From positions 14,614-54,613 of the forward strand of contig JANQLO010000081.1 in assembly GCA_028280505.1 (NCBI GenBank): a DNA stretch of 40,000 bases, given 5' to 3'. How positions within the stretch are numbered: the stretch's first letter is position 1; each line of letters opens with the position of its first letter. Shown piece after piece: positions 1,306-20,130 of the stretch. Source of the DNA: Chromatiales bacterium. Its GTDB lineage: Bacteria > Pseudomonadota > Gammaproteobacteria > Chromatiales > Chromatiaceae. The notes below the pieces were generated by a model that saw only the letters and a list, made by a program, of their open reading frames with translations, searched no databases and was not told where the DNA came from. Made by a program: the position numbers and the translations under genes.

Positions 1306-2616
1306 CTAGTGCAGCTTGACCTCGGGATTGACCGAACGCCGTAATATGGACGACAGCGTCAGCAACAGGGTGTTGTAGACGCCATGCACGGTTACCTGGT
1401 GCATCTTGTGTAGCGACAGATAGACCAGACGCGCGATCATGCCGGAGATCCAGATGTTGCCGGTAATGCTGCCCATCAGGCTGCCGACCGTGCTGTAGCG
1501 ACCTAGCGTGACCAAAGAACCATAGTCACGGTATTTGTACCCGGCCGGCATGGGTTTGTCTTTTAGCCGTCGTTCGATCGCCCTGGCGACGAAACTGGCC
1601 TGTTGATGTGCGGCCTGTGCGCGTGGGGGTACAACGCGCCCCTCGTTATCCGGCGGAAAGGCCGCGCAGTCGCCGATCGCGAATATCCGGTCGTCCGATA
1701 GCGACACCAGATTGTGTTTTACGACGATCTGGTTGATTCCGTTGATCTCCAGACCGAGATTGCTCAACACCTCGGGTGCCTTGATGCCGGCCGCCCAAAC
1801 CGTGATCGCCGCCGGTATGAAATCGCCGGATGCGGTTGTCACGCCGCGCTCGCTCACTTCCGTCACGGCCTGTCCGGCGAGCACTTGGATACCCAGTTTG
1901 TCCAGCTCCTCGTGTACCGCCGCGGAAAGGCGCTCCGGCAGTGCAGGCAATATCCTCGGTCCGGCATCCAGTATCTTGATCCCGATATGATGATCGGGAT
2001 CGAGATCATCGAAGCCATAGGCACGCAGGCGCCGTGTCACCTGGTGCAATTGTGCCGCAAGTTCGACACCGGTCGCGCCGGCACCGACGATCGCGACGTC
2101 GAGTTGGCCGGGCGTCAGATTTTCATTGTGTGTGACCGCCTGGATCAGGCGCTCCATGAGCTTCTTCTGGAAGGTCACGGCCTCTTTCTTGCTGTCGAGA
2201 AACCAGCAGTGTTCCTTCACGCCCGGGATGCCGAAGTCGTGACTGATACTGCCGATGGCGAGTACCAGAGTGTCGTAGGGGAAGCTACGGCGGGGGATCA
2301 TTTCCTCGCCGTCGTCATTCAGGGTCGCCGACAGCCAGACTTGTTTGTTGACGCGGTCGAGCGACTCCAATTGACCCATGCGGAAACGAAAATGACCGCG
2401 CTGCGCCTGCGCGAGGTATTCGACCGTATGCAGGCCGGGGTCGAAGGAGCCGGCGGCGACCTGGTGGAGCAAGGGTTTCCAGATGTGGGTACGGCAGACG
2501 TCGATCAGCGTGATCTCGGCCTTGCCGCGTTTGCCGAGGCGGCGCCCGAGCCGGGTGGCGAGTTCCAAACCGCCGGCGCCACCACCGACGACAATGATCT
2601 TATGTGTTTCCGTCAA
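1306..2616 (-). CDS. ndh: Type II NADH dehydrogenase (NDH-2)
   Basis: 436 aa. Two dinucleotide-binding motifs (KIIVVGGGAGGLE and VAIVGAGATGVELA), a GDCA motif and a hydrophobic C-terminal tail, typical of NDH-2. Apparent TTG start 3 nt after the upstream stop. Confidence 0.88.
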   Translation of the reverse strand: MTETHKIIVVGGGAGGLELATRLGRRLGKRGKAEITLIDVCRTHIWKPLLHQVAAGSFDPGLHTVEYLAQAQRGHFRFRMGQLESLDRVNKQVWLSATLNDDGEEMIPRRSFPYDTLVLAIGSISHDFGIPGVKEHCWFLDSKKEAVTFQKKLMERLIQAVTHNENLTPGQLDVAIVGAGATGVELAAQLHQVTRRLRAYGFDDLDPDHHIGIKILDAGPRILPALPERLSAAVHEELDKLGIQVLAGQAVTEVSERGVTTASGDFIPAAITVWAAGIKAPEVLSNLGLEINGINQIVVKHNLVSLSDDRIFAIGDCAAFPPDNEGRVVPPRAQAAHQQASFVARAIERRLKDKPMPAGYKYRDYGSLVTLGRYSTVGSLMGSITGNIWISGMIARLVYLSLHKMHQVTVHGVYNTLLLTLSSILRRSVNPEVKLH

Positions 2617-2619
2617 CAG

Positions 2620-3132
2620 CTACCCACAGTCCTCGGACTTCGATTCGGAAAGATGACTCATGTAACGCTCGCGCGTGCGTTCCAAACGTGCCAGATAGAT
2701 ACCCAACTCGCTGCCGGGATTGTCGCGATCCCGGTTAAAGCGCTCGGCGAGTTGCTCGTCTTCCGTGTTCAGAAACAAGGTCATCGACGTGAGTATCATA
2801 CCCAGTCTGAAATCGAAATTGCGGAACTCGACCGAATCCGGATCCGGTGCCGGCATCTGTCGGCGCATGTCGTCCAAGCTTTCAGCATAGCTGAGCAGGC
2901 GGGCCTTTGCCGACGATGCGGTATCGGGTGCGTCCGCCATATGGCGTAACACTCCGGCCAGTTGCAGACGGGTTTCGTTATAGTCCTGCAATTCTTGCCG
3001 TAGGCCGGCTTTATTGCAGTGTCCGACATGTTTGTGCGACGGGTAGTCGGCGGGTACCGGCGGTATGCCGTTGGCCTGCACCGAGGCGGCACCGAACAGA
3101 CACCCGATGCCGAGCAGTATCGCGATTCGCAC
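2620..3132 (-). CDS. Secreted hypothetical protein
   Basis: 170 aa with a GTG start. Signal-peptide-like N-terminus MRIAILLGIGCLFGAASVQA. No family recognised. Packed 3-4 nt from both neighbours in the fds-ndh operon. Confidence 0.5.
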   Translation of the reverse strand: MRIAILLGIGCLFGAASVQANGIPPVPADYPSHKHVGHCNKAGLRQELQDYNETRLQLAGVLRHMADAPDTASSAKARLLSYAESLDDMRRQMPAPDPDSVEFRNFDFRLGMILTSMTLFLNTEDEQLAERFNRDRDNPGSELGIYLARLERTRERYMSHLSESKSEDCG

Positions 3133-3136
3133 CGGA

Positions 3137-3322
3137 TTACTCCGTCGATACCGTCAGCGCGCCGGAAGGGCAGGCCGCACAAACGTCACGGATCTGTTGT
3201 TCGCTCGCGCCTTGGGGATCGATTACGAACTCGCCGTTTTCCAGCTTGAACACCTGTGGCAGGCTGTTGACGCACACGCCGGCGTGTTGGCATACGGATT
3301 CATCCCAGTTGACTTTCAACAT
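3137..3322 (-). CDS. Small ferredoxin-like protein (divergent 4Fe-4S mono-cluster type)
   Basis: 61 aa. Cys pattern C-x5-C ... C-x2-C-P (CQHAGVC ... CAACPSG). GAGGAGAG Shine-Dalgarno upstream of the ATG. Immediately downstream of fdsA. Confidence 0.6.
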   Translation of the reverse strand: MLKVNWDESVCQHAGVCVNSLPQVFKLENGEFVIDPQGASEQQIRDVCAACPSGALTVSTE

Positions 3323-3345
3323 GTCTCTCTCCTCGTCGTGAATAA

Positions 3346-6090
3346 TCAGGCCGGTTCTACCCGGACCGCGCAGAATTTGAATTCCGGGATCTTGCCGTCA
3401 GGGTCGAGTGCCTCGTTGGTCAGCAGATTGGCGGCCGCCTCGTGATAACAGAACGGCAAGAACACCTGCCCCTTGCGCAGGCCGTTGTCGACCCGTGCGC
3501 GGGCGATGATGTCGCCTCGCCGTGAACGCACTCGAACGGGTTCACCCGGTGCCGCGCCGATGGCGCGGAGCTGGTCCTCGTGCAGTGTTGCCACCGGCGA
3601 CGGCTCTATGGCGTCGAGTACACTCGCGCGCCGCGTCATGCTGCCGGTGTGCCAGTGTTCGAGTTGACGGCCGGTGATCAGGATCAGCGGGTACTCGTCG
3701 TTCGGCAGTTCGTCGGCTTCGCTGAACGTTACCGGTACCAAGAGGGCCTTGCCGTCGGCGCGCGGAAACGCTTCGATGAAGATGACCTCGTCGCCCGGGT
3801 CGCCTTCGTTCTCGCAGGGGTAGGTCACCGCGCTGTCATGTTCCAGGCGCTCCCAGGTGATGCCGGCGATACTGGGCATGGCTTGGCGCATTTCGTCGAA
3901 TACGATGCGTGGTTCGGGATAGTGCCACTCGAGCCCGAGACGACGCGCCATATCGATGATGATATCGAGATCTTGTCGGGCCTCGCCCGGTGGTGTGAGT
4001 GCCTGGCGGCCGAGCTGCACCCGGCGATCGGTATTCGTGAAGGTGCCGGTTTTTTCTGGAAAGGCCGAGGCTGGCAGTATCACGTCGGCGTAGTGTGCGG
4101 TCTCGGTCATGAAGATGTCCTGCACCACCAAATGATCGAGCTTGGCCAACGCGGCGCGCGCATGTTGCAGATTCGGGTCGGACATTGCCGGGTTCTCGCC
4201 CATGATGTACATGCCGTGGATTCGATCGTCGTGGACGGCATGCATGATCTCGACTACGGTTAAACCCGGTTGTGGGTCGAGTGTCTGTCCCCACAGCACT
4301 TCGAACTTTTCGCGAACCTCATCGTTATCGACCCGTTGATAGTCGGGAAAGACCATTGGGATCAAGCCGACATCGGATGCGCCCTGTACGTTGTTCTGGC
4401 CCCGTAGCGGATGCAGACCGGTGCCTGGGCGACCGATCTGCCCGGTGATGAGTGCCAGGTTGATCAGGCAACGAGCATTGTCGGTGCCGTGTATGTGCTG
4501 CGATATGCCCATGCCCCAGAAGATCATCGAGCCCTTCGACGATGCGAACGTGCGTGCGACCTCGTGCAGTGTTTCGGCCGATATGCCACAGATGGCTTCC
4601 ATCGCCTCGGGGGCATAGTCGACCAGATGCGTCTTCAAGGCCGCATAGCCATCGGTACGTTGATCGATGAAGGCTTGATCGACCAGGCCTTGTTCGATGA
4701 CCGAATACATGATCGCGTTCAGCATGGCGACATCGGTGTCGGGCTTGAACTGCAGCACGTAATCCGCGTGGCGCGCGATGTCGGTGAGCCGCGGGTCCAT
4801 GACGATCAAGGTCTTGCCGGCGCGCGCGGCGTTCTTGAAAAAGGTCGCTGCGACCGGATGGTTCTCGGTCGGGTTCGAACCGATGACCACGATGACCTCG
4901 GCCTGGTCGACATCGGCCACCGGGTTGGACACGGCGCCGGAACCGATCATCTGCAACAGCGCGGCGACCGACGAGGCATGACACAGGCGGGTGCAGTGAT
5001 CGACGTTGTTGCTGCCGAATCCGGTGCGCACCAGTTTCTGAAACAAATAGGCCTCTTCGTTCGAGCCCTTGGCCGAACCGAAGCCCGCGAGTGTGCTCGG
5101 GCCTCGTTCGGCGCGGATACGATTCAGCCCGTCGGCGGCACGCGACATGGCCTCTTCCCAGCTGGCCTCGCGGAAGTCGCGCAGTGCATTGTCGCGGTCG
5201 AGATCGAGTTCGGCCCGCTTGGGCGCGTCGTCACGCCGGATCAACGGCTGCAGCAGGCGTTGACGATGACGCACATAGTCGAAGCCATAACGGCCTTTGA
5301 CGCACAGACGGTTGTGATTGGCCGGTCCGTCGCGCCCTTCGACCCAAAGAATCCTGTTGTTACTGACGTGGTAGGTGAGCTGGCAGCCGACACCACAGTA
5401 GGGACAGACCGAATCGATCCGTTTTTCGGCCTCAATCTTCGCGGCATCGCGTGCCGGCATCAATGCCCCGGTCGGGCAGGCCTGCACGCATTCGCCGCAG
5501 GCCACGCAGCTGGATTCACCCATGGGATCGTCGAGATCGAACACGATACGCGCCTTGGCGCCGCGTCCGGCAAATCCGATCACATCGTTCGCCTGGGTCT
5601 CGCGACAGGCACGTAGGCAGCGGGTGCATTGGATGCAGGCGTCCAGGTTCACCGCGATCGCCGGGTGGGATAGATCGGGCCCGGGTTGTCCGCTGGCGGG
5701 AAAACGCGGTGCGCCGACGGCGAGCTTGTCGCTCCAGGCATCGAGTTCGCTGTTCGGCGTATAGTCGGTATCGGCCGCCGTATCGGCGCGTAACAGTTCC
5801 AGCACCAGTCTCTGCGCGTGCCGCGCTCGCTCGTTTTGTGCACTGACCTTCATACCGTCGCCGGGATAGCGGCAGCACGAGGGTGCAAGTACACGCTCGC
5901 CGTCGATTTCGACCATGCAGGCGCGGCAGTTGCCGTCGGCGCGCAGGCCCTCGGTATAGCACAGGTGCGGGATCTCGACGCCATGACGTTGCGCGGCCTG
6001 TAGGATGGTCTCGCCCGGCAGGGCGGCGATTTTGCGGCCGTCGAGTTCGAACGCTATCGGTTGCGGTAGATCTTGCGGTCGTGCAGCCAT
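3346..6090 (-). CDS. fdsA: NAD-dependent formate dehydrogenase, alpha (molybdopterin) subunit
   Basis: 914 aa. N-terminal 2Fe-2S ferredoxin fold (CYTEGLRADGNCRACMVE), 4Fe-4S motifs (CIQCTRCLRAC, CVACGECVQACP, CPYCGVGC), a MopB formate dehydrogenase core with Cys ligand context (VDHCTRLCHASS), and a C-terminal MopB barrel. Uninterrupted ORF, so Cys-type rather than Sec-type. Confidence 0.92.
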   Translation of the reverse strand: MAARPQDLPQPIAFELDGRKIAALPGETILQAAQRHGVEIPHLCYTEGLRADGNCRACMVEIDGERVLAPSCCRYPGDGMKVSAQNERARHAQRLVLELLRADTAADTDYTPNSELDAWSDKLAVGAPRFPASGQPGPDLSHPAIAVNLDACIQCTRCLRACRETQANDVIGFAGRGAKARIVFDLDDPMGESSCVACGECVQACPTGALMPARDAAKIEAEKRIDSVCPYCGVGCQLTYHVSNNRILWVEGRDGPANHNRLCVKGRYGFDYVRHRQRLLQPLIRRDDAPKRAELDLDRDNALRDFREASWEEAMSRAADGLNRIRAERGPSTLAGFGSAKGSNEEAYLFQKLVRTGFGSNNVDHCTRLCHASSVAALLQMIGSGAVSNPVADVDQAEVIVVIGSNPTENHPVAATFFKNAARAGKTLIVMDPRLTDIARHADYVLQFKPDTDVAMLNAIMYSVIEQGLVDQAFIDQRTDGYAALKTHLVDYAPEAMEAICGISAETLHEVARTFASSKGSMIFWGMGISQHIHGTDNARCLINLALITGQIGRPGTGLHPLRGQNNVQGASDVGLIPMVFPDYQRVDNDEVREKFEVLWGQTLDPQPGLTVVEIMHAVHDDRIHGMYIMGENPAMSDPNLQHARAALAKLDHLVVQDIFMTETAHYADVILPASAFPEKTGTFTNTDRRVQLGRQALTPPGEARQDLDIIIDMARRLGLEWHYPEPRIVFDEMRQAMPSIAGITWERLEHDSAVTYPCENEGDPGDEVIFIEAFPRADGKALLVPVTFSEADELPNDEYPLILITGRQLEHWHTGSMTRRASVLDAIEPSPVATLHEDQLRAIGAAPGEPVRVRSRRGDIIARARVDNGLRKGQVFLPFCYHEAAANLLTNEALDPDGKIPEFKFCAVRVEPA

Positions 6091-6093
6091 GGC

Positions 6094-7764
6094 TCAGAAC
6101 TCCTCCGGGAAGTATTTCATGGCGCAGCGCAAAGGGTTGGGCGCGGCCTGGCCCAGGCCGCAGATCGACGCGTCCTCCATGACCTGGCAGAGTTCTTCGA
6201 GCAGTGGCTTGTCCCATGCGTCGTGTGCCATCAGTGTCGCCGCCTTTTCGGTGCCGACCCGGCAGGGCGTGCATTGGCCGCAGGATTCGTGCGCGAAGAA
6301 ACGCATGGCGTTCAGTGCGACGTCACGCACATTGTCACGATCGGACAATACGATCACCGCGGCCGAGCCGATGAAACAGCCGTGGTCGTTCAGGGTATCG
6401 AAGTCGAGCGGCAGATCGGCCAGCGATGCCGGCAGAATGCCGCCCGAGGCACCGCCCGGTAAGTAACCCTTGAGCGTGTGACCGTCGAGTATGCCGCCGC
6501 AGTATTCGTCGATGAGTTCACGCAGGCTGATGCCGGCCGGTGCGATATGCACGCCGGGTTGCTTGACCCGGCCGCTCACCGAGAAGCTGCGCAGCCCCTG
6601 GCGCCCGTTACGTCCGTGCGACAGAAACCAGTCGGCGCCCTTGTCGAGAATCTCGGGTACCCAGTAAAGGGTTTCCATATTGTGTTCGAGTGTCGGTTGG
6701 CCGAACAAACCGCGTTCGGCGATATAAGGCGGTCGCAGGCGGGGCATGCCGCGTTTGCCCTCGATGGATTCGATCATCGCCGACTCTTCGCCGCAGATGT
6801 ACGCGCCGGCGCCGCGTCGCAGTTCGATCGGCGGCAATGCGCAGGGCGGGTTCTGCCGCAGCTTGTCGAGTTCTTCGGTGAGCAGCTCGCGGACGCCGGC
6901 GTACTCGTCACGCAAGTAGATGTAGATGGCGTCGATCCCGACCACGTGTGCCGCGATCAACATGCCCTCGAAAAAGCGGTGCGGATGGCGTTCGAGGAAA
7001 TAACGGTCCTTGAAGGTGCCGGGCTCGCCCTCGTCGATGTTCACCGCCATCAGGCGCGGCCCGGGATAGCCGTGGACGATGCGCCATTTGCGACCGGCCG
7101 GGAAACCGGCGCCGCCGAGTCCGCGCAGGCGGGCGTCTTCGAGTGTCTGGATGACCTCTTCGCGGATCTTGTCTTGATCCTGCGAGAGCAGTTTCCGCAG
7201 CAATTGATATCCGCCGTCGTTGCAATAAGCGTCGAGTCGTTTGGCGTTGCTTGGTGCGTGTGCTTTTCGATCGTCATGCTCGATCGCGTCGCATAGCTTG
7301 CTTGTATTCGCTTTGCCGAGCGCTTGGGTGCCGACGACGCCGACCGGCGCTTGATCACAGCGACCGACACAGGGCACACGCTGAATTCTCACGCCTTCGC
7401 CAAGGGCGTGCTGTAACTCGGCGATCAGGGTTTCCGCGCCGGCCATGGCGCAACTGATGGAGTCGCATACCCGAACAGTCAGGGCGGGTGGCGGGGTTTC
7501 GTCTTCCTTGACGACGTCGAAGTGATGATAAAAGCTGGCAACCTCGTAGACCTCGGTCGGCGCGAGGCGTAGCTCGTGCGCCAGCGCGACCAGCAGATGA
7601 GCGGGCAGATGGCCGAGCGCATCCTGGATGCGATGCAGATATTCGATCAGATGATCACGGCGTGGCTGCTCGTCGAGGTATCGATGCACCTCCTCTAGAT
7701 CGGCATTGAGTGCCGTTCGTCCTTTCTTTTGACCGTTTTTTCGTTTGCGGGCTGTCGCGCTCAA
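6094..7764 (-). CDS. fdsB: NAD-dependent formate dehydrogenase diaphorase subunit: fused NuoE/FdsG-like and NuoF/FdsB-like domains
   Basis: 556 aa. N-terminal thioredoxin-like 2Fe-2S domain (VCDSISCAMAG ... VPCVGRCDQAP), then a NuoF-type NADH/FMN domain (GLGGAGFPAGRKW, ICGEESAMIESIEG) and a 4Fe-4S motif (ESCGQCTPCRVG). Apparent TTG start. Confidence 0.88.
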   Translation of the reverse strand: MSATARKRKNGQKKGRTALNADLEEVHRYLDEQPRRDHLIEYLHRIQDALGHLPAHLLVALAHELRLAPTEVYEVASFYHHFDVVKEDETPPPALTVRVCDSISCAMAGAETLIAELQHALGEGVRIQRVPCVGRCDQAPVGVVGTQALGKANTSKLCDAIEHDDRKAHAPSNAKRLDAYCNDGGYQLLRKLLSQDQDKIREEVIQTLEDARLRGLGGAGFPAGRKWRIVHGYPGPRLMAVNIDEGEPGTFKDRYFLERHPHRFFEGMLIAAHVVGIDAIYIYLRDEYAGVRELLTEELDKLRQNPPCALPPIELRRGAGAYICGEESAMIESIEGKRGMPRLRPPYIAERGLFGQPTLEHNMETLYWVPEILDKGADWFLSHGRNGRQGLRSFSVSGRVKQPGVHIAPAGISLRELIDEYCGGILDGHTLKGYLPGGASGGILPASLADLPLDFDTLNDHGCFIGSAAVIVLSDRDNVRDVALNAMRFFAHESCGQCTPCRVGTEKAATLMAHDAWDKPLLEELCQVMEDASICGLGQAAPNPLRCAMKYFPEEF

Positions 7765-7818: not shown

Positions 7819-8409
7819 TTATGGACGCCCGGTCTGTCGGGCGGGTATCTTGGCCTTTTGTTCGGCGCGTACCAGTGCCATGCGCAGACTGTCGGCAAGG
7901 GCGTTCGGCGGCAGACCGTGTGGCAGAATCCGCAGCAGCTCGCCCTGGGTGTCGATCAGATACAGGCTGGCGCTGTGATCCATCGTGTAGCGTTCGATCT
8001 CGCCTTTACCGACGAACTGATAGCGCACCCGATAGCGTTCCGCAACGTCGTGCAGTTGCTCCGGCGCGCCGGTCAGTCCGCGTAGGCGAGAATGAAAGAA
8101 GCGCGTGTAGACGCGCAGATGTTCGGGGGTGTCGCGGTCCGGATCGAGCGACACGAACAGCGCATCGACCTTTTCCGCATCTTCGCCAAGGCTGTTGAGG
8201 GCATTACCAATGACCGCCAATGCTGTGGGGCAGACGTCAGGGCAATAGGTGTAGCCAAACGATAACACCACGAGTTGGCCGCGCGAATCGGCGAGGGAGT
8301 AACTCGAACCATCGTCTGCCGTAAGGGTGAAGTCGCCGCCCAGCCCGAATGCTCCGCCGCTTATCGCTGAAACCAACAATGTCATGCCGATTAACTGCCG
8401 ATACTTCAT
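7819..8409 (-). CDS. SCO1/SenC copper chaperone (thioredoxin fold)
   Basis: ORF 7819-8781 trimmed to the internal ATG (comp. 8407-8409, MKYRQLIGMTLLVSAISGGAFG signal/anchor) preceded by GGAGA. Canonical motif FGYTYCPDVCP plus a downstream His (MDHSASLYLID). Confidence 0.85.
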   Translation of the reverse strand: MKYRQLIGMTLLVSAISGGAFGLGGDFTLTADDGSSYSLADSRGQLVVLSFGYTYCPDVCPTALAVIGNALNSLGEDAEKVDALFVSLDPDRDTPEHLRVYTRFFHSRLRGLTGAPEQLHDVAERYRVRYQFVGKGEIERYTMDHSASLYLIDTQGELLRILPHGLPPNALADSLRMALVRAEQKAKIPARQTGRP

Positions 8410-8860: not shown

Positions 8861-9265
8861 ATGCGCTCCTCGCTCATGTATTTCAGTTCTCGCCGACGTG
8901 TGTGGATTCACCTGGCGCTCATCTTCGCGTTGCTTATGCAGGGCGCGATTCCTTTGCAATCGCATACCGTTTTCGCAAAGAACGGTTTCGGCCATCTCGT
9001 TGTCATATGTACCTGGAACGGTGCGCGTGTTGAATGGATCGATCTTCCCGGCTCAGATGATGCATCGTCCGTTGAACGATTGTCACCCGCGTGTCTTTTC
9101 TCGCAGCTTCTGGCATCTGCCGGATTATCCGTTGCACCAATCTCTCCCGCGGCCTTGTTTGTGCCGTTCGGTGCGCTCGACGAGTATCGGGTTGCATATT
9201 TTGCCGTTGCCTCACTCGAGGCCTACCTGATACGCGCGCCTCCTGACAGTATCGACCGTGTCTGA
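8861..9265 (+). CDS. DUF2946-like small secreted/membrane protein (copper-uptake associated family)
   Basis: 134 aa. N-terminal hydrophobic segment WIHLALIFALLMQGAIPL, two spaced Cys contexts (VVICTWNG, SPACLFS) and a C-terminal RAPP motif, as I recall for DUF2946. Sits directly upstream of a PCuAC gene, the usual partner. Family assignment is from memory only. Confidence 0.5.
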   Translation: MRSSLMYFSSRRRVWIHLALIFALLMQGAIPLQSHTVFAKNGFGHLVVICTWNGARVEWIDLPGSDDASSVERLSPACLFSQLLASAGLSVAPISPAALFVPFGALDEYRVAYFAVASLEAYLIRAPPDSIDRV

Positions 9266-9331
9266 TTAATACATGGATCGCACAGCGTCTGTTTCGTGCG
9301 CTGTGCAGACAAATCTGTTTGGAGAGTTTCA

Positions 9332-10189
9332 ATGAGTACTCTGAGTTTTCGTTGCGGCATGGCCTTGCTTGCCATGATGTTTGCCATTCCTGTGTCCGCC
9401 ATTCCGGCAGCCGACGAGATTCTCGTTGCCAATCCGTATGCGCGTGCCGTTCCTCCGATGATGGAGAACAGCGCGATGTTTGTAACGCTGAAGAATACCG
9501 GCGCGAGCGATCGGGCCCTTGTGAGCGCCAGCAGCCGTGCTGCCGAGGTCGTAGAGCTGCATACACACGTCAAAGACGGTGATGTCATGCGGATGCGGCA
9601 GATCGATAAGATCGAGATCAAAACCGGTCAGTCGGCGGTTCTCGAGCCGGGTGGTTTGCACGTGATGCTGATCGGGCTCAAGCGACCCTTGATGCCCGGT
9701 AGTACCGTACAGGTCGATTTGCACTTCGATGATGGCAGCAGCAAAGCGGTCGTTGCGCCGATCAAGTCGATTGCCGGCATGCATGCCGGCAGTGGTCATG
9801 CGATGCAGGGTAGGGGGAAATCCTCGGAGCCCATGTCCCCGGTATTCATCAATCTCACCACCGATGACAATTGGCGTGCAGGGATGGCGCTGCACTGGGC
9901 GCGTATGGCGCTCAAACGGGGCCATGAGGTGACTATCTGGCTGAACGTCGAGGCGGTGCGTATCGCCGTCAAGCGCATCGGCCATCCCATACATGCCATG
10001 CAGAACAAGTCGGCCCAAGAAATGCTGCAAGCCGTTGCGGCAGATGGTGCTACCGTACTGGTCTGCCCCGGTTGCCTGAAGCGTGCGGGATTCAATCGTG
10101 GAGACCTGATTGATGCGGTGTCCACGGGAAGTCCGGACACGGTCATGCCGGCCATGTTCGACTCGAAAACCAAGGTGATCAGCTGGTAA
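9332..10189 (+). CDS. Periplasmic copper chaperone PCu(A)C (DUF461) fused to a C-terminal DsrE/DsrF-like domain
   Basis: ORF 9296-10189 trimmed to ATG 9332 (GGAGAG at 9321-9326). Signal peptide MSTLSFRCGMALLAMMFAIPVSA. PCuAC H(M)x10Mx21HxM-type motif (ELHTHVKDGDVMRMRQ ... GGLHVMLIGL). C-terminal ~120 aa resemble DsrE/TusD/YchN (PVFINLTTDD..., VLVCPGCLKRAGF, KVISW). Confidence 0.8.
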   Translation: MSTLSFRCGMALLAMMFAIPVSAIPAADEILVANPYARAVPPMMENSAMFVTLKNTGASDRALVSASSRAAEVVELHTHVKDGDVMRMRQIDKIEIKTGQSAVLEPGGLHVMLIGLKRPLMPGSTVQVDLHFDDGSSKAVVAPIKSIAGMHAGSGHAMQGRGKSSEPMSPVFINLTTDDNWRAGMALHWARMALKRGHEVTIWLNVEAVRIAVKRIGHPIHAMQNKSAQEMLQAVAADGATVLVCPGCLKRAGFNRGDLIDAVSTGSPDTVMPAMFDSKTKVISW

Positions 10190-10618: not shown

Positions 10619-12001
10619 ATGCGTTCTGAAACACTCAAGAAATGGCGCCGGACAGTCTTGGCAATCGGTCTTGCCAGCTCCGCTGCGATGGCCGCGATGG
10701 TCACGCCGGCTTTCGCCGACGAGACTTGCATGTCGCCTTACATGGCCAAGATCGTTGGCCAAGAAGACTTCGTGTATGTGTGGACGCTTGGCATCGAGGG
10801 TGTCGGTGATGGCCAGGACAAGCTGGTCACGGTCGACGTCAACCCGAAGTCGAAGAACTATGGCCAAGTCATCCATGCCTTGTCGGTCGGTGGTCGTAAC
10901 GAAGCCCATCATTCGGGTCTGACCGATGATCGCCGTTATCTCTGGGCCGGCGGTTTGGATACCAACAAGCTGTGGATCTTCGATGTGCATACCGATCCGG
11001 CCAAGCCGCGGCTGAAAAAGGTTGTCACCGACTTCGTCGCGAAAAGTGGCGGCGTGGTGGGTCCGCATACAACCTATGCACTGCCCGGCAGAATGATGAT
11101 TACCGGACTGTCCAACAACAAGGATCACGGCGGTCGTACCGCGCTGGTCGAGTACACCAACGAGGGCGAGTATGTCGCCACGTACTGGATGCCGACCGAT
11201 GAGAATCTTCAGGGTGCCGTGAAGAGCGGCAAGTATGCCGATGGGTATGGTTATGACGTCCGCGTACTGCCACGCCGTAACATGATGGTGACTTCGTCAT
11301 TCACCGGCTGGTCGAACTACATGATGGATTTCGGCAAGATGCTGCAGGACAAGGAAGCCATGAAACGCTTCGGCAATACCGTCGTGATCTGGGATTTGCA
11401 CCAGCGCAAGCCGAAGAAGGTGCTGGACGTTCCCGGTGCACCGCTGGAGATTCGTTGTGCATGGCAGCCAACCAATAACTGGTGCCTGACGACGACCGCC
11501 CTGACGTCAAAGGTCTGGTTGATCTACGAAGACGACGCGGGCGAATGGCAGGCCAAAGACGTCGCGGATATCGGTGATCCGTCCAAGGTGCCGCTGCCGG
11601 TCGCGTTCTCGATCGCACAGGACGATTCCGGCTTTCTGCTCAACACCTTCATGGACGGCAAGGTCCGTTATTTCGATCTCAGCGATCCGCACAAGCCGGT
11701 GCAGAAGTACGAGAAAGTGATCGGCAAGCAGGTGAATATGATCTCCGGCAGTTGGGACTGGAAGCGCCAGTACTTCACCAGTTCGCTGCTTGCCAACTGG
11801 GACAAGAAAGGTGGTGACGGCGAGCAGTTCTTCCGCGCCTACGATTGGGATGGCGAGAAGCTGACCAAGCGTTTCGAGATCGACTTCATTGAAGCGAAGC
11901 TCGGACGCGCTCACCAGATGCGGTTCGGTGCCTATGCGCTGTATGCCAAACACAGGCCGGCGCAGCAGCCCGAAGGTTCGGCCCTGGCATCTGCGGAATA
12001 A
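10619..12001 (+). CDS. mtoX: Methanethiol oxidase, selenium-binding-protein (SBP56) family, periplasmic
   Basis: 460 aa, GGAGG at 10606-10610. Export leader MRSETLKKWRRTVLAIGLASSAAMAAMVTPAFA (Tat-like RR). SBP56-type sequence throughout (GYDVRVLP, VVIWDL, FFRAYDWDG...). Followed by SCO1-like/MauG genes, as recalled for described mtoX loci. Confidence 0.82.
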   Translation: MRSETLKKWRRTVLAIGLASSAAMAAMVTPAFADETCMSPYMAKIVGQEDFVYVWTLGIEGVGDGQDKLVTVDVNPKSKNYGQVIHALSVGGRNEAHHSGLTDDRRYLWAGGLDTNKLWIFDVHTDPAKPRLKKVVTDFVAKSGGVVGPHTTYALPGRMMITGLSNNKDHGGRTALVEYTNEGEYVATYWMPTDENLQGAVKSGKYADGYGYDVRVLPRRNMMVTSSFTGWSNYMMDFGKMLQDKEAMKRFGNTVVIWDLHQRKPKKVLDVPGAPLEIRCAWQPTNNWCLTTTALTSKVWLIYEDDAGEWQAKDVADIGDPSKVPLPVAFSIAQDDSGFLLNTFMDGKVRYFDLSDPHKPVQKYEKVIGKQVNMISGSWDWKRQYFTSSLLANWDKKGGDGEQFFRAYDWDGEKLTKRFEIDFIEAKLGRAHQMRFGAYALYAKHRPAQQPEGSALASAE

Positions 12002-12011
12002 CCTCCGTGTA

Positions 12012-12090
12012 CCCCTATGCCGACGTGGTTCGGCGGCATAGGGGCTTCCTCTACGGTGATTTGCCCCCAGCATGGCGGGGGCGCTTTTTT
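12012..12090 (+). terminator. Tandem hairpins after mtoX; the second is a Rho-independent terminator
   Basis: Hairpin 1: CCCCTATGCCG (12012-12022) pairs with CGGCATAGGGG (12034-12044), with no T tract. Hairpin 2: GCCCCC (12063-12068) pairs with GGGGGC (12077-12082), followed by GC TTTTTT (12085-12090). Confidence 0.65.
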
Positions 12091-12114: not shown

Positions 12115-14067
12115 ATGTTATCGATGATGAGCCGGGGATTTTTGTCGTCGTTGTTGTCGATAGTCGTATTTGCCGGCACGCCGTTTGCCGAGACGAGCGA
12201 CAAGCCGCTCGTACTAGCCCCTTTTTATACCGAAGCAGAGTTTGATCCACCCCCGCCGGGTAGCTATGCGTTGCCAATGCTCGGCTACGCTTCCGACGGC
12301 GCCATACTCAATACACTGGGGCGAAGCGAGAGTCTTCACGAGCACTTTGGCGATGGCAAGGTTGTCCTTCTGAGTTTCATTTTCAGTACCTGTACCGACA
12401 TCAACGGCTGCCCGCTGGCGACCGCCGTGATGTATCGCATTCAACAGAAACTCAAAGATGATCCGGCAATCGGCGAACGTTTTCGCATGATCAGCTTGAG
12501 TTTCGATCCGGCCTACGACACGCCCGAGGTCATGGCGCTCTATGGATCGGACTTCAGCCAACAGGGCGATTGGCGTTTTCTGACCACGGCATCGTGGGAC
12601 GATCTTCAGCCCATTCTCGACAGCTATGGCCAGTCGGTGATCCAGGATATTGATGAAAACGGTAAGCCGCTACCGTCGTTCTCGCACATTCTCCGCGTGT
12701 TTCTGATCGATCCCGATAAACGTATCCGCAACATCTACAGCGTCTCTTTTCTCAATCCCGATCTCATCCTCAACGACGCCAGGACGGTGTTGATGGCGGA
12801 TGAGCCGGGTACCGATAGGCAAGCAGGGTTGCAAAAGGTATCGACCTTGTCCAAACCCGGTGACTATAAGGAAGGCTACGAATCCGATGATTATCGTACA
12901 CGCAGCCATGCCGTGGAGTTGCGCACCGGGCAAAAGGCCGACTTGCTGACCTTTATCGAGAATCCGCCGCTGGGTTTGCCGGCAGTCCCTCAACCCGAAA
13001 ACAATCCGGCGACACCGGCTAAGCTCGAACTGGGGCGCAAACTGTTTTTCGATCGGCGATTGTCACTCAACGACACCTTCTCCTGTGCGATGTGCCATGT
13101 GCCCGAGCAAGGCTTCACCAATAACGAATTGGCGATGGCGGTCGGTTTCGAAGGTCGGAGTGTGCGTCGCAACTCGTCGACGATATATAACACCGCCTAT
13201 TTTACCCGCTTGTTCCACGATGGCCGTGAAGAGTCATTGGAACAACAAGTGTGGGGGCCGTTTCTCGCACCCAATGAGATGGCGAACCCCTCGGTGGGTG
13301 CGGTGATCAGCAAGATTCGGCGTATGCCCGATTATGCGGGTCTGTTCGAGGCGGCCTTCGACGGTCGCGGCGTGAGCATGGAAACCGTCGGTATGGCCTT
13401 GGCCGTTTATCAGCGTGCGCTGGTATCGGGGAATTCGCCATTCGATCGTTGGCATTACGGCGGCGAGCAGGCCGCGCTTTCCGAATCGGCCAAACGCGGT
13501 TTCGAAATTTTTACCGGTAAGGCGAATTGTTCTTCCTGCCATACCGTAGGCAAGGGCTACGCATTGTTCACGGACGACCGATTGCACAATACCGGTATGG
13601 GTTATCGCGAGTCCATGGGTATCAAACCCGAGAAGCAGCGTGTGTTGCTCGCACCCGGCGTGTATGTAGAGGTCGACCGGGAAACCATCGAGTCGGTGGG
13701 CCTTCCTCGTCCACCCGATCTCGGTCTGTATGAAATCACCCAAAATCCGCATGACCGTTGGAAATACCGTACGCCGACACTGCGCAATGTCGCGCTGACC
13801 GCACCCTATATGCACAACGGTTCGCTCAGCACCCTGCGTGACGTGGTCGAGTTCTACAATAACGGTGGTGTGCCAAACGAATTGCTCGATCCACGCGTTC
13901 GGCCTCTGGAACTCAGTGATGAGGAAATCGACGACCTGGTGGTCTTCATGCGAAGCCTCACGGGTGATAATGTCGATACCATCGTCGCCGATGCCTTTGC
14001 TGCACCGGTTGGCGATATCACCATCGACGACCCGAATTGGGCACACGAGGCGACGGCCTATGATTAG
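12115..14067 (+). CDS. Fusion protein: SCO1/SenC-like thioredoxin-fold domain plus di-haem cytochrome c peroxidase/MauG domain
   Basis: 650 aa, GAGGGAG at 12101-12107, signal peptide. N-terminal domain: VVLLSFIFSTCTDINGCPLA (C-x5-C-P rather than CxxxCP), FRMISLSFDP, and His in SFSHILRVFLID. C-terminal domain: two haem-c motifs CAMCH and CSSCH plus TPTLRNVALTAPYMHNGS, typical of CCP/MauG. Confidence 0.85.
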   Translation: MLSMMSRGFLSSLLSIVVFAGTPFAETSDKPLVLAPFYTEAEFDPPPPGSYALPMLGYASDGAILNTLGRSESLHEHFGDGKVVLLSFIFSTCTDINGCPLATAVMYRIQQKLKDDPAIGERFRMISLSFDPAYDTPEVMALYGSDFSQQGDWRFLTTASWDDLQPILDSYGQSVIQDIDENGKPLPSFSHILRVFLIDPDKRIRNIYSVSFLNPDLILNDARTVLMADEPGTDRQAGLQKVSTLSKPGDYKEGYESDDYRTRSHAVELRTGQKADLLTFIENPPLGLPAVPQPENNPATPAKLELGRKLFFDRRLSLNDTFSCAMCHVPEQGFTNNELAMAVGFEGRSVRRNSSTIYNTAYFTRLFHDGREESLEQQVWGPFLAPNEMANPSVGAVISKIRRMPDYAGLFEAAFDGRGVSMETVGMALAVYQRALVSGNSPFDRWHYGGEQAALSESAKRGFEIFTGKANCSSCHTVGKGYALFTDDRLHNTGMGYRESMGIKPEKQRVLLAPGVYVEVDRETIESVGLPRPPDLGLYEITQNPHDRWKYRTPTLRNVALTAPYMHNGSLSTLRDVVEFYNNGGVPNELLDPRVRPLELSDEEIDDLVVFMRSLTGDNVDTIVADAFAAPVGDITIDDPNWAHEATAYD

Positions 14068-14566
14068 AATGCTGCCTGCGTTGTTACTCGGCATGACCTT
14101 GGCTTTTCCCGTTCAGGCGGCGCGCGTGATGAAGGCCTATGAGCAGCCCAGGCAGGCACCGGCATTCGCGCTACCGGCGGTCGATGGCGGTTCGCGGCAA
14201 TTGACGGATTACCGGGGACGTTACCTGTTGGTGAATTTTTGGGCGGTCTGGTGCAGCCCCTGTGTCAAGGAAATGCCGTCGATGCAACAGGCCTACGATA
14301 CCCTCAAGGACGACGGTTTGGCGATGGTCGCGATTCATGTCGGTCCGAGCGTCGAGGGCGCGAAGAAGTTTGCCGATGATCTCGGATTGAGCTTCGATAT
14401 CGTGGTCGACGAACAGATGGCCCTTGCCAAATGGCAGGTACAGGCCTTGCCGACGACCTTCCTGGTCGATCGAGAGGGGCGCATTGTCGCCGAGGCGCTT
14501 GGTGATCGGGATTGGGCGGGCGAGAGCTTGCTCGATCAATTAAAGGGTTTTCTCGAGACACGCTGA
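14060..14566 (+). CDS. TlpA/ResA-like periplasmic thiol:disulfide oxidoreductase
   Basis: ORF 13838-14566 trimmed to ATG 14060, which overlaps the upstream stop by 8 nt. Signal peptide MIRMLPALLLGMTLAFPVQA. Redoxin motif LLVNFWAVWCSPCVKEMP. Confidence 0.85.
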   Translation: MIRMLPALLLGMTLAFPVQAARVMKAYEQPRQAPAFALPAVDGGSRQLTDYRGRYLLVNFWAVWCSPCVKEMPSMQQAYDTLKDDGLAMVAIHVGPSVEGAKKFADDLGLSFDIVVDEQMALAKWQVQALPTTFLVDREGRIVAEALGDRDWAGESLLDQLKGFLETR

Positions 14567-14610: not shown

Positions 14611-14979
14611 TCAGTCGCGCATCGACCTCGGCTCGAGTCGCTGCGCGAAGTGTGCGCCATCGACCTCGCTCAGCCGGAGCAGCCAACCGTCGGCATACGG
14701 CTGATCGTTGACCAGGGTCGGCTCCATGATGCAGGTTTCATTGTGCGCGATTACCGTGGCGCTCAATGGTGCGATGAGGTCGGAGACGGTTTTCAGCGAC
14801 TCGATGCTAGCGCAACGTTCACCACCGACGAGATGTTGGCCCACGGCTGGTAGTCCAGCTTTTCGATGGTGCCCAGTGCTTGCTGTGCGTGTTCGGGTGA
14901 TACCCGAAATCCACTGGCCACCTTCTGGCATGACCCAGACATGATGCGGGCTGTAACGGCGGTCGTCAGGCACCGACAT
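14611..14979 (-). CDS. GcvH-like lipoyl-carrier protein (orphan; internal 14-codon segment appears out of frame)
   Basis: 122 aa. YSPHHVWV...GIT at the N-terminus, lipoyl-lysine context CASIESLKTVSDLIAPLS, and NDQPYADGWLLRL. The conserved EHAQQALGTIEKLD segment is encoded only in the +1 frame between about 14853 and 14897 (see finding). Confidence 0.7.
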   Translation of the reverse strand: MSVPDDRRYSPHHVWVMPEGGQWISGITRTRTASTGHHRKAGLPAVGQHLVGGERCASIESLKTVSDLIAPLSATVIAHNETCIMEPTLVNDQPYADGWLLRLSEVDGAHFAQRLEPRSMRD

Positions 14980-14995
14980 GGGTTTTCCTCAAGTA

Positions 14996-15027
14996 GAAAA
15001 AGGCCATCCGCGAACTGCGGGATGGCG
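14996..15027 (-). terminator. Rho-independent terminator after the FadL-like gene
   Basis: Minus strand reads GCCATCCCGC-AGTTC-GCGGATGGC (9-bp stem with one bulge) followed by CTTTTTCT. Lies between the FadL-like stop (15035) and the gcvH-like start (14979). Confidence 0.65.
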
Positions 15028-15034
15028 AGGTTGT

Positions 15035-16258
15035 TTAATTGAAGCGCCAGGTGAGCGCCGCGCCGACCTGCCAGGCGCCGGCATCCGCTTTTGTCGGTCC
15101 GATGGTCTCATCCCGCTCGAAGGCACGCGCAACGTGTGCGTCGATCTGTAGGCCGGGTTGAACTTCCCAGCCCAGGCCGGCGGTTAACTGGTTTTCCCAG
15201 ATAACCTGAGTATTGGTGGCTTGAACGTATTGCACCAATGTCGGATTGAGCGGCACCGTTGCACCCCCGAGAAAGATCGAAGTGGCATCGCCCAATCTCG
15301 ACCCCAGGTTGCGCTTGATCGGGCTTTCAGCGTGCGAGAACCCAATGCGCCACTTGAATGGTCCCCGGGTGTATTGGGCGCCGACGGCGTATACGGTCTG
15401 GTCGTCGTAGACATCCTCGTAGGTTTCCGCGTCACTCCAGTTCTTCCAAATCATATCGGCGGCCAGCAGCAGTTGACCGTTCATCAGGCTTTCGTTCGCG
15501 ATGCCGAATGCCAGTTCCTGCGGTTGTTCCACCGTCACGTCATGGAAGCCGTTCGCCGCGAATTGCACCACGCGCTCGTATTCGATCGACAGCGGACTTC
15601 GGTAGTAGGCACCGACGGTCGTTGCGCCGAGCGCATAAGTTGCGCCGAGCGTCCCGCGAATGCCGAAGTTGCTGGTCGAACTGGTGATGCTTTGCAGGCC
15701 GAGTTGTCCGAGTCCGTAGGCGATGGTTGCGGCGGCGCCGATCGAGAGATTGTCGTTGATCTTGTGTCCGACACCGGCGTTGGCACCGAACACCAGGATC
15801 TCGGCCAGCGGGTCCAGGCTGCCCGGCGTACCGCGAAAATCCGTGCCGACGCCCGATACGACGGTAAGGCCCAGGCCCAGTGTGGTTGAATCACCCAGCG
15901 ACTGGCTAACCGCGACGTTCGGTACCAGCCAGGGCCCGGCCTCGGAGTCGGCCGACCAGGCGGTGCCGGTCGCTGATCCGTCGTGAGTGTTTTCGACGTC
16001 GACGTTGTAGTAGGTCGCGCCGAACATGAACTGCGTGCCTTTGAACTGGGTCAGCGTGGCCGGATTGCCGAACACCGTCGAGCCGACGTCTTGCGGGCGT
16101 GCGATACCGACACCACCCATACCGCCGGCGGCAGGCATCATGGTCAAGTTGAGGTCGGTGCCATAGTTGGCGGCGTGCGCCTGTGCGAAGACGAGGCCGA
16201 TACCGGCAGCCAGGGCAAGGTAAGTGAACCGTTTATTCGTTTGTTTCATGGCGTTCAT
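15035..16258 (-). CDS. Outer-membrane transport protein, OmpP1/FadL/TodX family
   Basis: 407 aa. Signal peptide ...GLVFAQAHA, the family's N-terminal hatch motif (GGMGGVGIARPQDVGSTVFGNPATL), alternating beta-strand pattern, and a C-terminal aromatic end (LTWRFN). Confidence 0.8.
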   Translation of the reverse strand: MNAMKQTNKRFTYLALAAGIGLVFAQAHAANYGTDLNLTMMPAAGGMGGVGIARPQDVGSTVFGNPATLTQFKGTQFMFGATYYNVDVENTHDGSATGTAWSADSEAGPWLVPNVAVSQSLGDSTTLGLGLTVVSGVGTDFRGTPGSLDPLAEILVFGANAGVGHKINDNLSIGAAATIAYGLGQLGLQSITSSTSNFGIRGTLGATYALGATTVGAYYRSPLSIEYERVVQFAANGFHDVTVEQPQELAFGIANESLMNGQLLLAADMIWKNWSDAETYEDVYDDQTVYAVGAQYTRGPFKWRIGFSHAESPIKRNLGSRLGDATSIFLGGATVPLNPTLVQYVQATNTQVIWENQLTAGLGWEVQPGLQIDAHVARAFERDETIGPTKADAGAWQVGAALTWRFN

Positions 16259-16267
16259 CTCTGCGCT

Positions 16268-16813
16268 CTAGGCGGCATCGGTTGTCAGTCTGTGCAGTTC
16301 GCGTCCTGCGACCCGGGCGGTACCGCTAACGGATTGCGCACGAGTCAGAATGTCCAGTACCGGGCAGTGGTTCTCGACGGTATCGATCAGCTTACGCAGG
16401 CTTTCGTCATCGGCGGGGCTCTCGATTTCGGTTTCGAAGCTGATGCGTTTGTAACCCGGTGGGATCGACGCATCCATGCCGAACAGGCCCTTGAGATCGA
16501 GGTATCCGCGTGCGTTGACTTTGACCGAGGTGAGTTCGATATCCATCACTGCGGCATAGGCGGAGTACATGATCTCCTGACAGGTGCCCAGCGCGACCAG
16601 GACCAGCTCGACGGGATTGGCCGCGCTGTCCTGACCACCCAACTCGGGGGGTTCATCGACGATCATCGGTTCGAAACCACGGACCTTTGCCGAACAGCGT
16701 ACGTCTTCCTCCCATTCGGTTTCGGCACGGAATACGACGTTGGATAGATTGGGGTTGTCTTGAATGCCCCCAATGGTTTTCATCAGAGCCTCTTTGACGC
16801 TGGCTTGCGACAT
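16268..16813 (-). CDS. OsmC/Ohr-family protein (putative peroxiredoxin)
   Basis: 181 aa. PELGGQDSAANPVELVLVALGTCQ and ENHCPV motifs carry the two conserved Cys of OsmC-like proteins. Ends 9 nt before the FadL-like start. Confidence 0.82.
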   Translation of the reverse strand: MSQASVKEALMKTIGGIQDNPNLSNVVFRAETEWEEDVRCSAKVRGFEPMIVDEPPELGGQDSAANPVELVLVALGTCQEIMYSAYAAVMDIELTSVKVNARGYLDLKGLFGMDASIPPGYKRISFETEIESPADDESLRKLIDTVENHCPVLDILTRAQSVSGTARVAGRELHRLTTDAA

Positions 16814-18860: not shown

Positions 18861-19088
18861 GTTCGTCTTGTCCCGGTTCAGTTCAGTACTTACATCCGCC
18901 AGGCAACGCAATTCCTGTGCCGCTGTCCGGATGCCGATGAACGGATCGAAGAATCCGTCGTGATGACCAATCTTTTTTCGAAGGGTTGTCATGGGTGTGC
19001 TTAATCGCGGTGACACAGTGACACGCGACAGGTGCACGCCGCCGTCCCGCGGCGCCGACTATCCCGGCGACACCGCCGTTTGCGAAGC

Positions 19089-19104
19089 AGGCACGGCGTT
19101 TGCA
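19089..19104 (+). promoter_or_regulatory. Second sigma54-like -24/-12 motif, just upstream of mptG (weak call)
   Basis: AGGCAC-GGCGT-TTGCA matches GGCAC-N5-TTGCA. However, the -12 element is only ~13 nt from ATG 19117, which would imply a leaderless mRNA or a downstream start (GTG 19156). Confidence 0.3.
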
Positions 19105-19116
19105 ATCCCCCTTGCC

Positions 19117-20127: not shown

Positions 20128-20130
20128 GGC

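Follow-up and report, generated by a model that had tools for sequence, protein, structure and literature searches.

What does a domain of the sulfur-carrying DsrE type do outside the cytoplasm, joined to a copper chaperone? The question is raised by one gene, at 9332..10189 (+), in a 40,000-nucleotide stretch of a contig from a Chromatiales bacterium (JANQLO010000081.1, positions 14,614 to 54,613; the whole stretch is hereafter the window). The gene encodes a PCuAC copper chaperone followed by a DsrE/YchN-fold domain with a pair of cysteines. The source of Cu(I) for periplasmic copper chaperones, in a compartment that oxidises, and the partners they require are understood only in part; those known are Sco proteins, TlpA and, in PcuC and AccA, His/Met tails and tracks. 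A preliminary description of the window had pointed out the fusion, and here we ask whether it is real, how its second half is related to other proteins, and what company that half keeps. The PCuAC-DsrE/YchN fusion is genuine, yet rare.

One reading frame encodes both domains in independent assemblies

The fusion gene is a single uninterrupted frame of 285 residues, with the stop codon inside the coordinates given. We preferred the ATG at 9332 over a GTG upstream at 9296 because a GGAGAG Shine-Dalgarno sequence lies 7 nt before it and because the equivalent Met begins all homologs. The N-terminus, which reads MSTLSFRCGMALLAMMFAIPVSA up to the predicted cleavage site and IPAADE after it, resembles a Sec signal peptide on inspection (residues 1-23, 9332..9400, +), with cleavage expected after V-S-A and an A-x-A site conserved in homologs. 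On the strength of this signal-peptide-like N-terminus, the fusion protein looks exported and periplasmic.

Twelve homologous clusters, 62-98% identical to the window protein and drawn from metagenome assemblies of four sources (ENA, JGI, Logan and NCBI), keep one open reading frame (ORF) with both domains, and the length and composition of the linker between the domains are conserved across them. A Logan contig also encodes the exact window protein, and on L013, a TARA ocean scaffold of 353 kb, the gene is found at 90% identity or more in an identical gene order. An assembly or sequencing frameshift that joined two genes, an artefact for which the preliminary description had proposed a check, was therefore rejected: the same ORF recurs in all 12 clusters and on independent contigs, and we give the artefact next to no chance. 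No relative of the fusion family's C-terminal domain was found by a pattern scan (alignment A6) of 185,579 species-representative genomes. The initial claim that a single exported ORF joins PCuAC to a DsrE-like domain is thus borne out by homologs as well as by the Pfam and fold matches described below.

A canonical PCuAC half and a His/Met-rich linker

The first half of the protein (residues 32-139; 9425..9748, +) matches Pfam PCuAC (PF04314) over profile positions 1-108 of 109, at E=6e-38 and 129.5 bits against a cutoff of 29.4. It carries the exact Cu(I) motif H77-X10-M88-X21-H110-X-M112, with codons within 9560..9667, and H77, M88, H110 and M112 are all invariant among the fusion homologs. 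A full-length AlphaFold2 (AF2) model was of moderate quality, with a predicted local distance difference score (pLDDT) of 69 and a predicted template-modelling score (pTM) of 0.43. Its N-terminal domain matched the PCuAC structures 3zk0, 9yah, 2k6w and 6p1e in Foldseek (E=5e-11 to 2e-8; template-modelling score, TM, of 0.77-0.86 on the target), with PmoF among the matches and a cupredoxin-like beta-sandwich as the common fold. This half is a full, canonical member of its family, with a predicted Cu(I) site.

A flexible linker rich in His and Met follows (residues 140-169; 9749..9838, +). It reads GMHAGSGHAMQG... after the PCuAC domain and includes GMHAGSGHAMQGRGKSSEPMS; residues 149-166 are disordered in the AF2 model (pLDDT <50). 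Linkers of the homologs are similar (GMHHGGGHGM-type) or enlarged, for example GGMHGGHGQHGGHMMHGGG, and that of representative P0008 is expanded. The segment resembles the His/Met-rich tail of some PCuAC proteins, including PcuC of B. diazoefficiens, whose tail binds Cu(II) (PMC13006917).

Two other representatives, P0014 and P0015, have a PCuAC part 64-66% identical and end in a different module, LTXXQ/Spy-like (PF07813), joined by a strongly repetitive linker of His, Gly and Lys (GHGKHHGK...). PCuAC thus appears to acquire C-terminal partners of several kinds.

The C-terminal half has the DsrE/YchN fold and a cysteine pair at the DsrE active-site position

Residues 170-285 (9839..10186, +) form the second domain, within which residues 179-263 match Pfam DsrE (PF02635) at E=7.9e-9 and 36.1 bits against a cutoff of 22.7. 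Modelled alone with AF2 from a 39-sequence alignment, the domain reached a pLDDT of 94.2 and a pTM of 0.87, and its top 11 matches in the PDB were all of the DsrE/YchN fold (Foldseek probability 1.00). The best of them was E. coli YchN (1jx7; TM 0.77/0.83, root-mean-square deviation 2.4 Å); others were DsrEFH (2hy5; DsrE TM 0.72), SSO1126, 3mc3, 2qs7 and MTH1491. A family-profile search of the PDB returned 3mc3 at 2e-10 and YchN at 4e-7, while a sequence-only search with the single domain gave nothing meaningful (YchN, E=1.6). No thioredoxin-fold structure was among the significant Foldseek matches; only the local strand-CxxC-helix arrangement is similar. AF2 predicted no confident packing between this domain and PCuAC (pTM 0.43). 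Profile and structure comparison thus agree with the first assignment of this half to the DsrE family.

The cysteine pair, C245-P-G-C248 (10064..10075, +), sits at a helix N-terminus after strand 3, and its members are the only two Cys of the mature protein. Profile-profile alignment with hhalign placed C245 on the catalytic Cys78 of TusD/DsrE (pairwise E=0.0014, probability 18%), and the PDB profile search gave the same register, with C245 on the Cys of 3mc3 and on C-K-T-C of YchN. The preliminary description had put a CPGC motif at the DsrE active-site Cys. The position stands, but CPGC is not the form typical of the family. Of 13 sequences, those of the 12 homologs and the window protein itself, 10 have CGGC, 2 have CPGC (the window and its closest relative) and 1 has CGNC.

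A second conserved element, the loop H218-P-I-H221-A-M223 (9983..10000, +), does not vary within the fusion family, and most stand-alone relatives lack it. Fold topology would place both this HPxHxM loop and the CxxC at the C-terminal edge of the sheet, and hence probably close to each other.

A large exported family is defined by the cysteine pair

With a profile of the C-terminal domain we searched 1.84 billion representatives and obtained 1,888 proteins at E<=1e-3, of which 532 were at E<=1e-10; the resulting family size of about 1,900 counts representative clusters at 50% identity. An exhaustive profile search was needed for this, as a word-indexed protein search with the domain alone returned four matches. 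Most of the top family matches are stand-alone proteins of 135-160 residues with CxxC and, on inspection, a hydrophobic, signal-peptide-like leader. A second branch of about 120 residues has no leader and is of the cytoplasmic type. DsrE-family proteins had at first been called normally cytoplasmic, which is right for the characterised ones and does not hold for this large, mostly exported-looking clade.

When 63 exported members were aligned, the two Cys were the only invariant columns; with the cytoplasmic branch added, the two Cys and one Asp were invariant. CxxC occupies the site in 205 of 213 full-length family domains. Among exported members CPMC is most frequent (32), ahead of CPVC, CPHC, CPAC and CPSC; the third motif position is Met in about 34% and His in others. 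Cytoplasmic relatives, including YchN (CKTC), keep the Cys pair, which argues against a purely structural disulfide. The other near-invariant residues of the family are Asn, Thr, Asp and Gly, and the N-terminal regions of its members are often rich in Met and His (P0141, P0171, P0234, P0250).

The cytoplasmic branch (P0132, P0138, P0147), several members of which come from Solirubrobacterales-type metagenome-assembled genomes (MAGs), has two CxxC motifs, C[DE]GC lying about 23 residues before CPIC. Its second CxxC falls in the loop that matches HPxHxM of the fusion family, and the four Cys together suggest a metal or cluster site. Some exported DsrE-like genes also occur as tandem pairs (L015:464-1365 and L011:7001-8093); in the L015 pair one copy has CGVC and the other a single Cys (VCAIY), an arrangement that recalls DsrE/DsrF-type hetero-oligomers.

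Fusions and neighbours connect the domain to periplasmic copper chaperones

We examined the 150 best family representatives for further fusions; the fused representatives are less than 50% identical to each other. The CxxC domain is joined to PCuAC in P0004 (the window family), P0177, P0194 and P0221, to NosL in P0149, to NosL and PCuAC together in P0166, to CHRD in P0133, and to Met/His-rich N-terminal regions in P0141 and P0171. A nearest-neighbour comparison sorts the domains fused to PCuAC into at least three groups, and for two of these the closest relatives are stand-alone proteins. P0166 and P0149 are adjacent genes on one metagenome contig (L014:695-3492). The former encodes a NosL-PCuAC-DsrE-like protein of 566 residues with a long Ala/Glu/Lys-rich linker, and the latter a NosL-DsrE-like protein of 338 residues. 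This contig is short and carries no nos genes; its neighbouring genes are SbcCD-like.

The same association is found between separate genes. Seven metagenome loci were fetched through the DsrE-like domain alone. At L017 and L018 a canonical CruR-like frame (CPIC...RAPP) is followed by an exported DsrE-like gene and then by PCuAC with a His/Met tail; at L020 a PCuAC gene with a long His/Met/Gly tail precedes an exported DsrE-like gene. At a further locus, L010, the gene after a DsrE-like member encodes a MauG/MbnH-like di-haem peroxidase. Taken together, the fusions in both orders, the adjacent genes and the common type of leader mean that, of all that can be said about the domain, a functional link with periplasmic Cu(I) chaperones has the best support.

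An upstream RAPP frame is the conserved partner of the fusion gene

The conserved partner of the fusion gene is a predicted DUF2946-like reading frame ending in RAPP, directly upstream of it, which the preliminary description had overlooked. In the window this CruR/CutF-type frame spans 8861..9265 (+) and encodes 134 residues with a signal-like hydrophobic N-terminus and RAPP at residues 125-128, six residues before the stop. Its Pfam DUF2946 match is near the cutoff (E=3.2e-4, 21.9 bits against 23.7) and covers profile positions 3-117 of 117. A homologous ORF of 114-135 residues directly precedes the fusion gene at every homolog locus, namely L001, L002 and L005-L008, and also in L012 and L013. 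An alignment of five such frames, that of the window included (A4), shows HT, C50, PACLFS and IRAPP to be invariant. The position of the copper-sensing CXXC motif, described as invariant for the CruR/CutF family, reads C-L-F-S in all five (C78-L-F-S81 in the window, 43 residues from RAPP); frames that keep RAPP and have this C-L-F-S include L001:2665-3063, L005:3463-3852 and L006:1669-2058.

Frames of this kind have been studied. CruR of Bordetella pertussis (Bp2923) and CutF of Rhodobacter capsulatus are DUF2946 nascent-chain copper sensors, in which translation arrest at RAPP or at a proline-rich motif controls the downstream genes and so couples their expression to copper availability (PMC9426467, PMC9973294). 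DUF2946 frames head copper-homeostasis operons, often with PCuAC, Sco, MbnPH and AhpC_TSA (PMC9426467).

A 66-nt leader (9266..9331, +) separates the window frame from the fusion gene and contains, by RNA folding, a GC-rich hairpin and the GGAGAG Shine-Dalgarno sequence. GGAG is invariant in an alignment of six loci. In the predicted minimum-energy fold of 9233..9345, GGAGAG pairs with the CCUCC region that codes for RAPP, around a 9-bp GC hairpin. Such a fold, hiding the Shine-Dalgarno sequence, was predicted at three of the six loci (the window, L001 and L007; not L005, L006 or L008). The z-scores are weak and unremarkable, given as -0.8 to -1.5 and as -0.3 to -1.8. Rfam recognised no known RNA family in any part of the window.

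Adjacency to mtoX is confined to one lineage

The gene for the methanethiol oxidase MtoX, of the SBP56 family (10619..12001, +; NCBIfam NF052453, 764.5 bits against 650), begins 429 nt downstream of the fusion gene. There is no terminator-like site between 10189 and 10619, and there is one at 12062-12083. MtoX enzymes release sulfane sulfur or H2S (PMC10936201, PMC5739008). Next comes an SCO1-MauG/MbnH-like di-haem peroxidase fusion of 650 residues (12115..14067, +; Pfam/NCBIfam), a known partner of mtoX; the mtoX/SCO1/mauG arrangement has already been published (Eyice et al. 2017, PMC5739008). Its stop is overlapped by 8 nt by the start of a gene for a TlpA-like periplasmic thioredoxin of 168 residues with WCSPC (14060..14566, +; Pfam AhpC-TSA, Redoxin and Thioredoxin, and the L013 gene call). 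On the other side, a divergent gene encodes an SCO1/SenC copper chaperone (7819..8409, -; Pfam SCO1-SenC E=6.8e-43), 196 residues long as called on the homologous contigs L012 and L013. With this SCO1, the mtoX cluster of the window holds a complete Sco/PCuAC/TlpA-type set for copper-site assembly.

The preliminary description had tied the fusion protein to the H2S-releasing enzyme encoded downstream. At the four homolog loci that extend past the end of the fusion gene, mtoX is absent; what comes next there is two methyltransferases, a peptidase S24, a TetR regulator or a ZnuA. We also surveyed the 80 closest mtoX loci in species-representative genomes (MtoX 71-83% identical; Chromatiales, Sedimenticola, Thiodiazotropha and Methylococcales), using six-frame ORFs and hidden Markov models whose positive controls gave 1e-32 to 1e-74. 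PCuAC, an exported CxxC DsrE-like gene and the upstream frame were absent within 6 kb at all 80; the sole DsrE-like match was of the cytoplasmic type without CxxC. The nearest MtoX sequences (82-83% identity) belong to Chromatiales and lucinid-symbiont MAGs. Adjacency of the fusion gene and mtoX was found only in the window lineage and on the TARA scaffold. The proposed tie fails at the four homolog and 80 mtoX loci alike, and a general function as a dedicated accessory of MtoX, or as its sulfide trap, was rejected in so far as it would need a conserved association. In this one lineage the fusion protein may serve the metallation of MtoX.

Proposed copper handling by the cysteine pair and its alternatives

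Our preferred reading, which we hold tentatively, is that the domain is a thiol-based copper-handling module whose Cys pair would bind Cu(I), reduce Cu(II), or both, for the PCuAC site. Direct copper handling is favoured because Met and His are enriched in and beside the motif, because the HPxHxM loop is invariant, and because the cytoplasmic branch places its second CxxC there. Repeated fusion to PCuAC and NosL and adjacency with them, the RAPP frame as partner, the invariance of the Cys pair, the canonical PCuAC half and a linker like the Cu(II)-binding tails point the same way. The preliminary description had left two alternatives for the domain. The comparative evidence favours the extra Cu(I)-binding CxxC module; it does not favour the trap for sulfide near MtoX.

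In the scheme that we infer, the protein would be a periplasmic metallochaperone in which a PCuAC Cu(I) site is tethered by a His/Met linker to a CxxC domain of the DsrE/YchN fold. The Cys pair would capture copper as a Cu(I)-bis-thiolate, or act as the electron donor for reduction of periplasmic Cu(II) to Cu(I), each dithiol serving two Cu(II), or do both. Cu(I) would then pass along the His/Met linker to the His2Met2 site of PCuAC, and from PCuAC to Sco proteins and cuproenzymes, in this genome probably including MtoX. A TlpA/DsbD-type system would re-reduce the Cys pair, and a TlpA-like gene is present in the window cluster. Expression is probably controlled by the upstream arrest-peptide frame. 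The binding or reduction of copper by the Cys pair, the direction of transfer, the control by copper and the re-reduction by TlpA/DsbD are the inferred parts of this scheme.

Several observations weigh against copper handling. Six of the ten non-fusion loci show no copper gene (L009, L011, L015, L016, L019, L021), several of these loci being short; L009 and L011 are long contigs with stand-alone exported members, and they have neither copper genes nor a common theme. The near-invariant Asn, Thr, Asp and Gly are not Cu(I) ligands. CPxC motifs, with Pro behind the first Cys, are typical of thiol-disulfide oxidoreductases that are redox-active, and Cys ligands in the periplasm risk oxidation. C245 lies exactly at the persulfide position of DsrE/TusD, which makes sulfur chemistry conceivable, and the likeness to YchN carries no mechanism over to the fusion domain. 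With CLFS in place of CXXC in the upstream frame, its copper-responsive control is not assured: it may be a variant sensor that uses C50 and C78 or His, or a leader that has lost the ability to sense copper.

It is rather unlikely that the CxxC domain is instead a disulfide reductase of client proteins, like TlpA or COA6 and built on a DsrE fold, which would keep the Cys of Sco, of CuA sites or of MtoX reduced for metallation by the tethered PCuAC. The CPxC, CGPC, CPHC and CPYC variants look like oxidoreductase active sites, the Cys pair begins a helix that follows a strand, the placement seen in thioredoxins, and the conserved polar Asn, Thr and Asp could tune the thiol pKa. Fusion to and adjacency with PCuAC fit a reductase equally well, and copper-site assembly needs one: TlpA for ScoI/CoxB (PMC6669012) and COA6 in mitochondria (PMC7254062). 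Its fold, however, is not thioredoxin-like, a TlpA-like thioredoxin is already encoded in the same cluster, and the enrichment of Met and His at the motif, together with the second CxxC of the cytoplasmic branch, looks more like a metal site. We also know of no DsrE-fold oxidoreductase that has been documented, which counts against the domain being one.

We consider it unlikely that the domain carries or traps sulfane sulfur as a persulfide in the periplasm, as DsrE/TusD proteins do in the cytoplasm. Such a protein would take up sulfide or sulfane sulfur, for instance from MtoX, and so protect Cu(I), or would supply or remove sulfide at Cu-S centres. Membership of the DsrE superfamily, the placement of C245 on Cys78 and the position of the gene upstream of mtoX, whose product releases sulfane sulfur or H2S, all agree with this, as does the fusion of the domain to NosL, the chaperone for the Cu4S CuZ centre (PMC6530538). 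The adjacency to mtoX is not conserved, however; characterised DsrE/TusD proteins need one Cys, whereas here a pair is invariant; and copper chaperones, together with an arrest-peptide frame of the copper type, are what is conserved beside it. Among the ORFs annotated between 584 and 21030 there is no TusA, DsrC or rhodanese, and the contig with the NosL fusions, albeit short, shows no nos genes. Still less probable, in our estimate, is a persulfide carrier that works together with PCuAC or NosL to deliver or remove sulfide at copper sites, whether as a sulfur donor for Cu-S centres such as CuZ or by stripping sulfide from Cu(I) near MtoX.

That the domain is mainly an oligomerisation scaffold making PCuAC multivalent, its Cys pair structural or in an unrelated role, seems very improbable to us: the closest structures (YchN, 1jx7; DsrEFH, 2hy5) are obligate oligomers, trimers or hexamers, and the lack of confident packing between the domains is expected of a tethered module, but the Cys pair is invariant family-wide while interface residues are not conserved in such a manner, and the many stand-alone exported members have nothing to scaffold.

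Other genes around the cluster

The window has a GC content of 59.5%. The ORFs annotated between 584 and 21030 are those for SCO1, the DUF2946-like frame, MtoX, SCO1-MauG, the thioredoxin, GcvH-like, FadL-like and OsmC proteins, a GXGXG-domain protein, a GHMP kinase, a methylene-tetrahydromethanopterin (H4MPT) dehydrogenase-like protein, an FAD oxidoreductase and a TetR regulator. Immediately after the mtoX cluster, at 14611..16813 (-), lie the genes for the GcvH-like lipoyl carrier, a FadL/TodX-family outer-membrane channel and the OsmC-like protein, in the same order as on L013. The channel might admit volatile hydrophobic sulfur compounds.

Formate dehydrogenase-like subunits are encoded at 3346..6090 and 6094..7764, annotated only through L013, with molybdopterin and NuoF-type domains of the kind that is typical for formate dehydrogenase linked to NAD. 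Further genes of the window are the methylene-H4MPT dehydrogenase-like one (20131..21030) and that for the GXGXG-domain protein, and L013 carries FTR. This gene content (1306..7764 and 17140..21030) suggests C1 metabolism.

Novelty and comparison with known systems

We found no description of the PCuAC-DsrE/YchN architecture in the literature searched, which agrees with the initial impression that it had not been described, and nothing that combines DsrE with PCuAC or NosL or that links YchN with copper in a meaningful way. The architecture, the large exported CxxC branch of the DsrE superfamily and its recurrent coupling to PCuAC and NosL all appear to be undescribed in that literature. Both domain families are already known, as is the placement of DUF2946 frames at the head of PCuAC operons. 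What is added is a large exported family whose sole invariant feature is a Cys pair and which is tied to PCuAC and NosL by fusion, by adjacency and by a shared copper-type leader. Should the domain prove to bind or reduce copper, the copper-delivery pathway would gain a new component, and the YchN branch of the DsrE superfamily its first clue to a function. Should it prove to carry sulfur, no DsrE-type sulfur carrier of the periplasm would have been linked to copper-site assembly before it.

Set beside the PCuAC/PcuC/AccA family (PF04314; T. thermophilus 2k6w, S. lividans ECuC 3zk0, N. gonorrhoeae AccA 9yah, and PcuC), the fusion protein has a Pfam score far above the cutoff, shares the Cu(I) site, the fold, the export signal and the His/Met segment, and adds after that tail a 116-residue DsrE/YchN-fold domain with CxxC. 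That domain shares its fold and the Cys78 position with DsrE/DsrF/DsrH-TusB/C/D (PF02635). It differs from DsrE/TusD in being exported rather than cytoplasmic, in having an invariant Cys pair where they have one catalytic Cys, and in having copper chaperones, not TusA, DsrC or Dsr genes, for company. YchN (1jx7) has the same fold and, at the same site, CKTC. The CopZ/Atx1-type Cu(I) chaperones with MxCxxC are cytoplasmic and have a ferredoxin-like fold; the DsrE-like domain shows no sequence relationship to them, but its CxxC at a loop-helix junction could likewise bind Cu(I) with two thiolates.

Among the proteins of copper-site assembly, TlpA and COA6 are functional analogues, in that each is a CxxC thiol module acting alongside Sco and PCuAC chaperones (PMC6669012, PMC7254062). 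Their fold is unrelated, and TlpA is not fused to PCuAC but is represented in the window by the separate TlpA-like gene at 14060..14566. Around the fusion gene, two Sco domains and the TlpA-like protein complete the trio that is used for CuA assembly (PMC6669012). The upstream frame resembles CruR and CutF in its small size, its signal-like N-terminus, its RAPP six residues from the stop and its place at the head of a copper-chaperone gene, and the distance from the Cys motif to RAPP is 43 residues as against 45 in CruR. It departs from them in that the copper-sensing CXXC reads CLFS, in a Pfam score just below the cutoff, and in the gap to the next gene, which is 66 nt in the window and 162 nt in B. 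pertussis.

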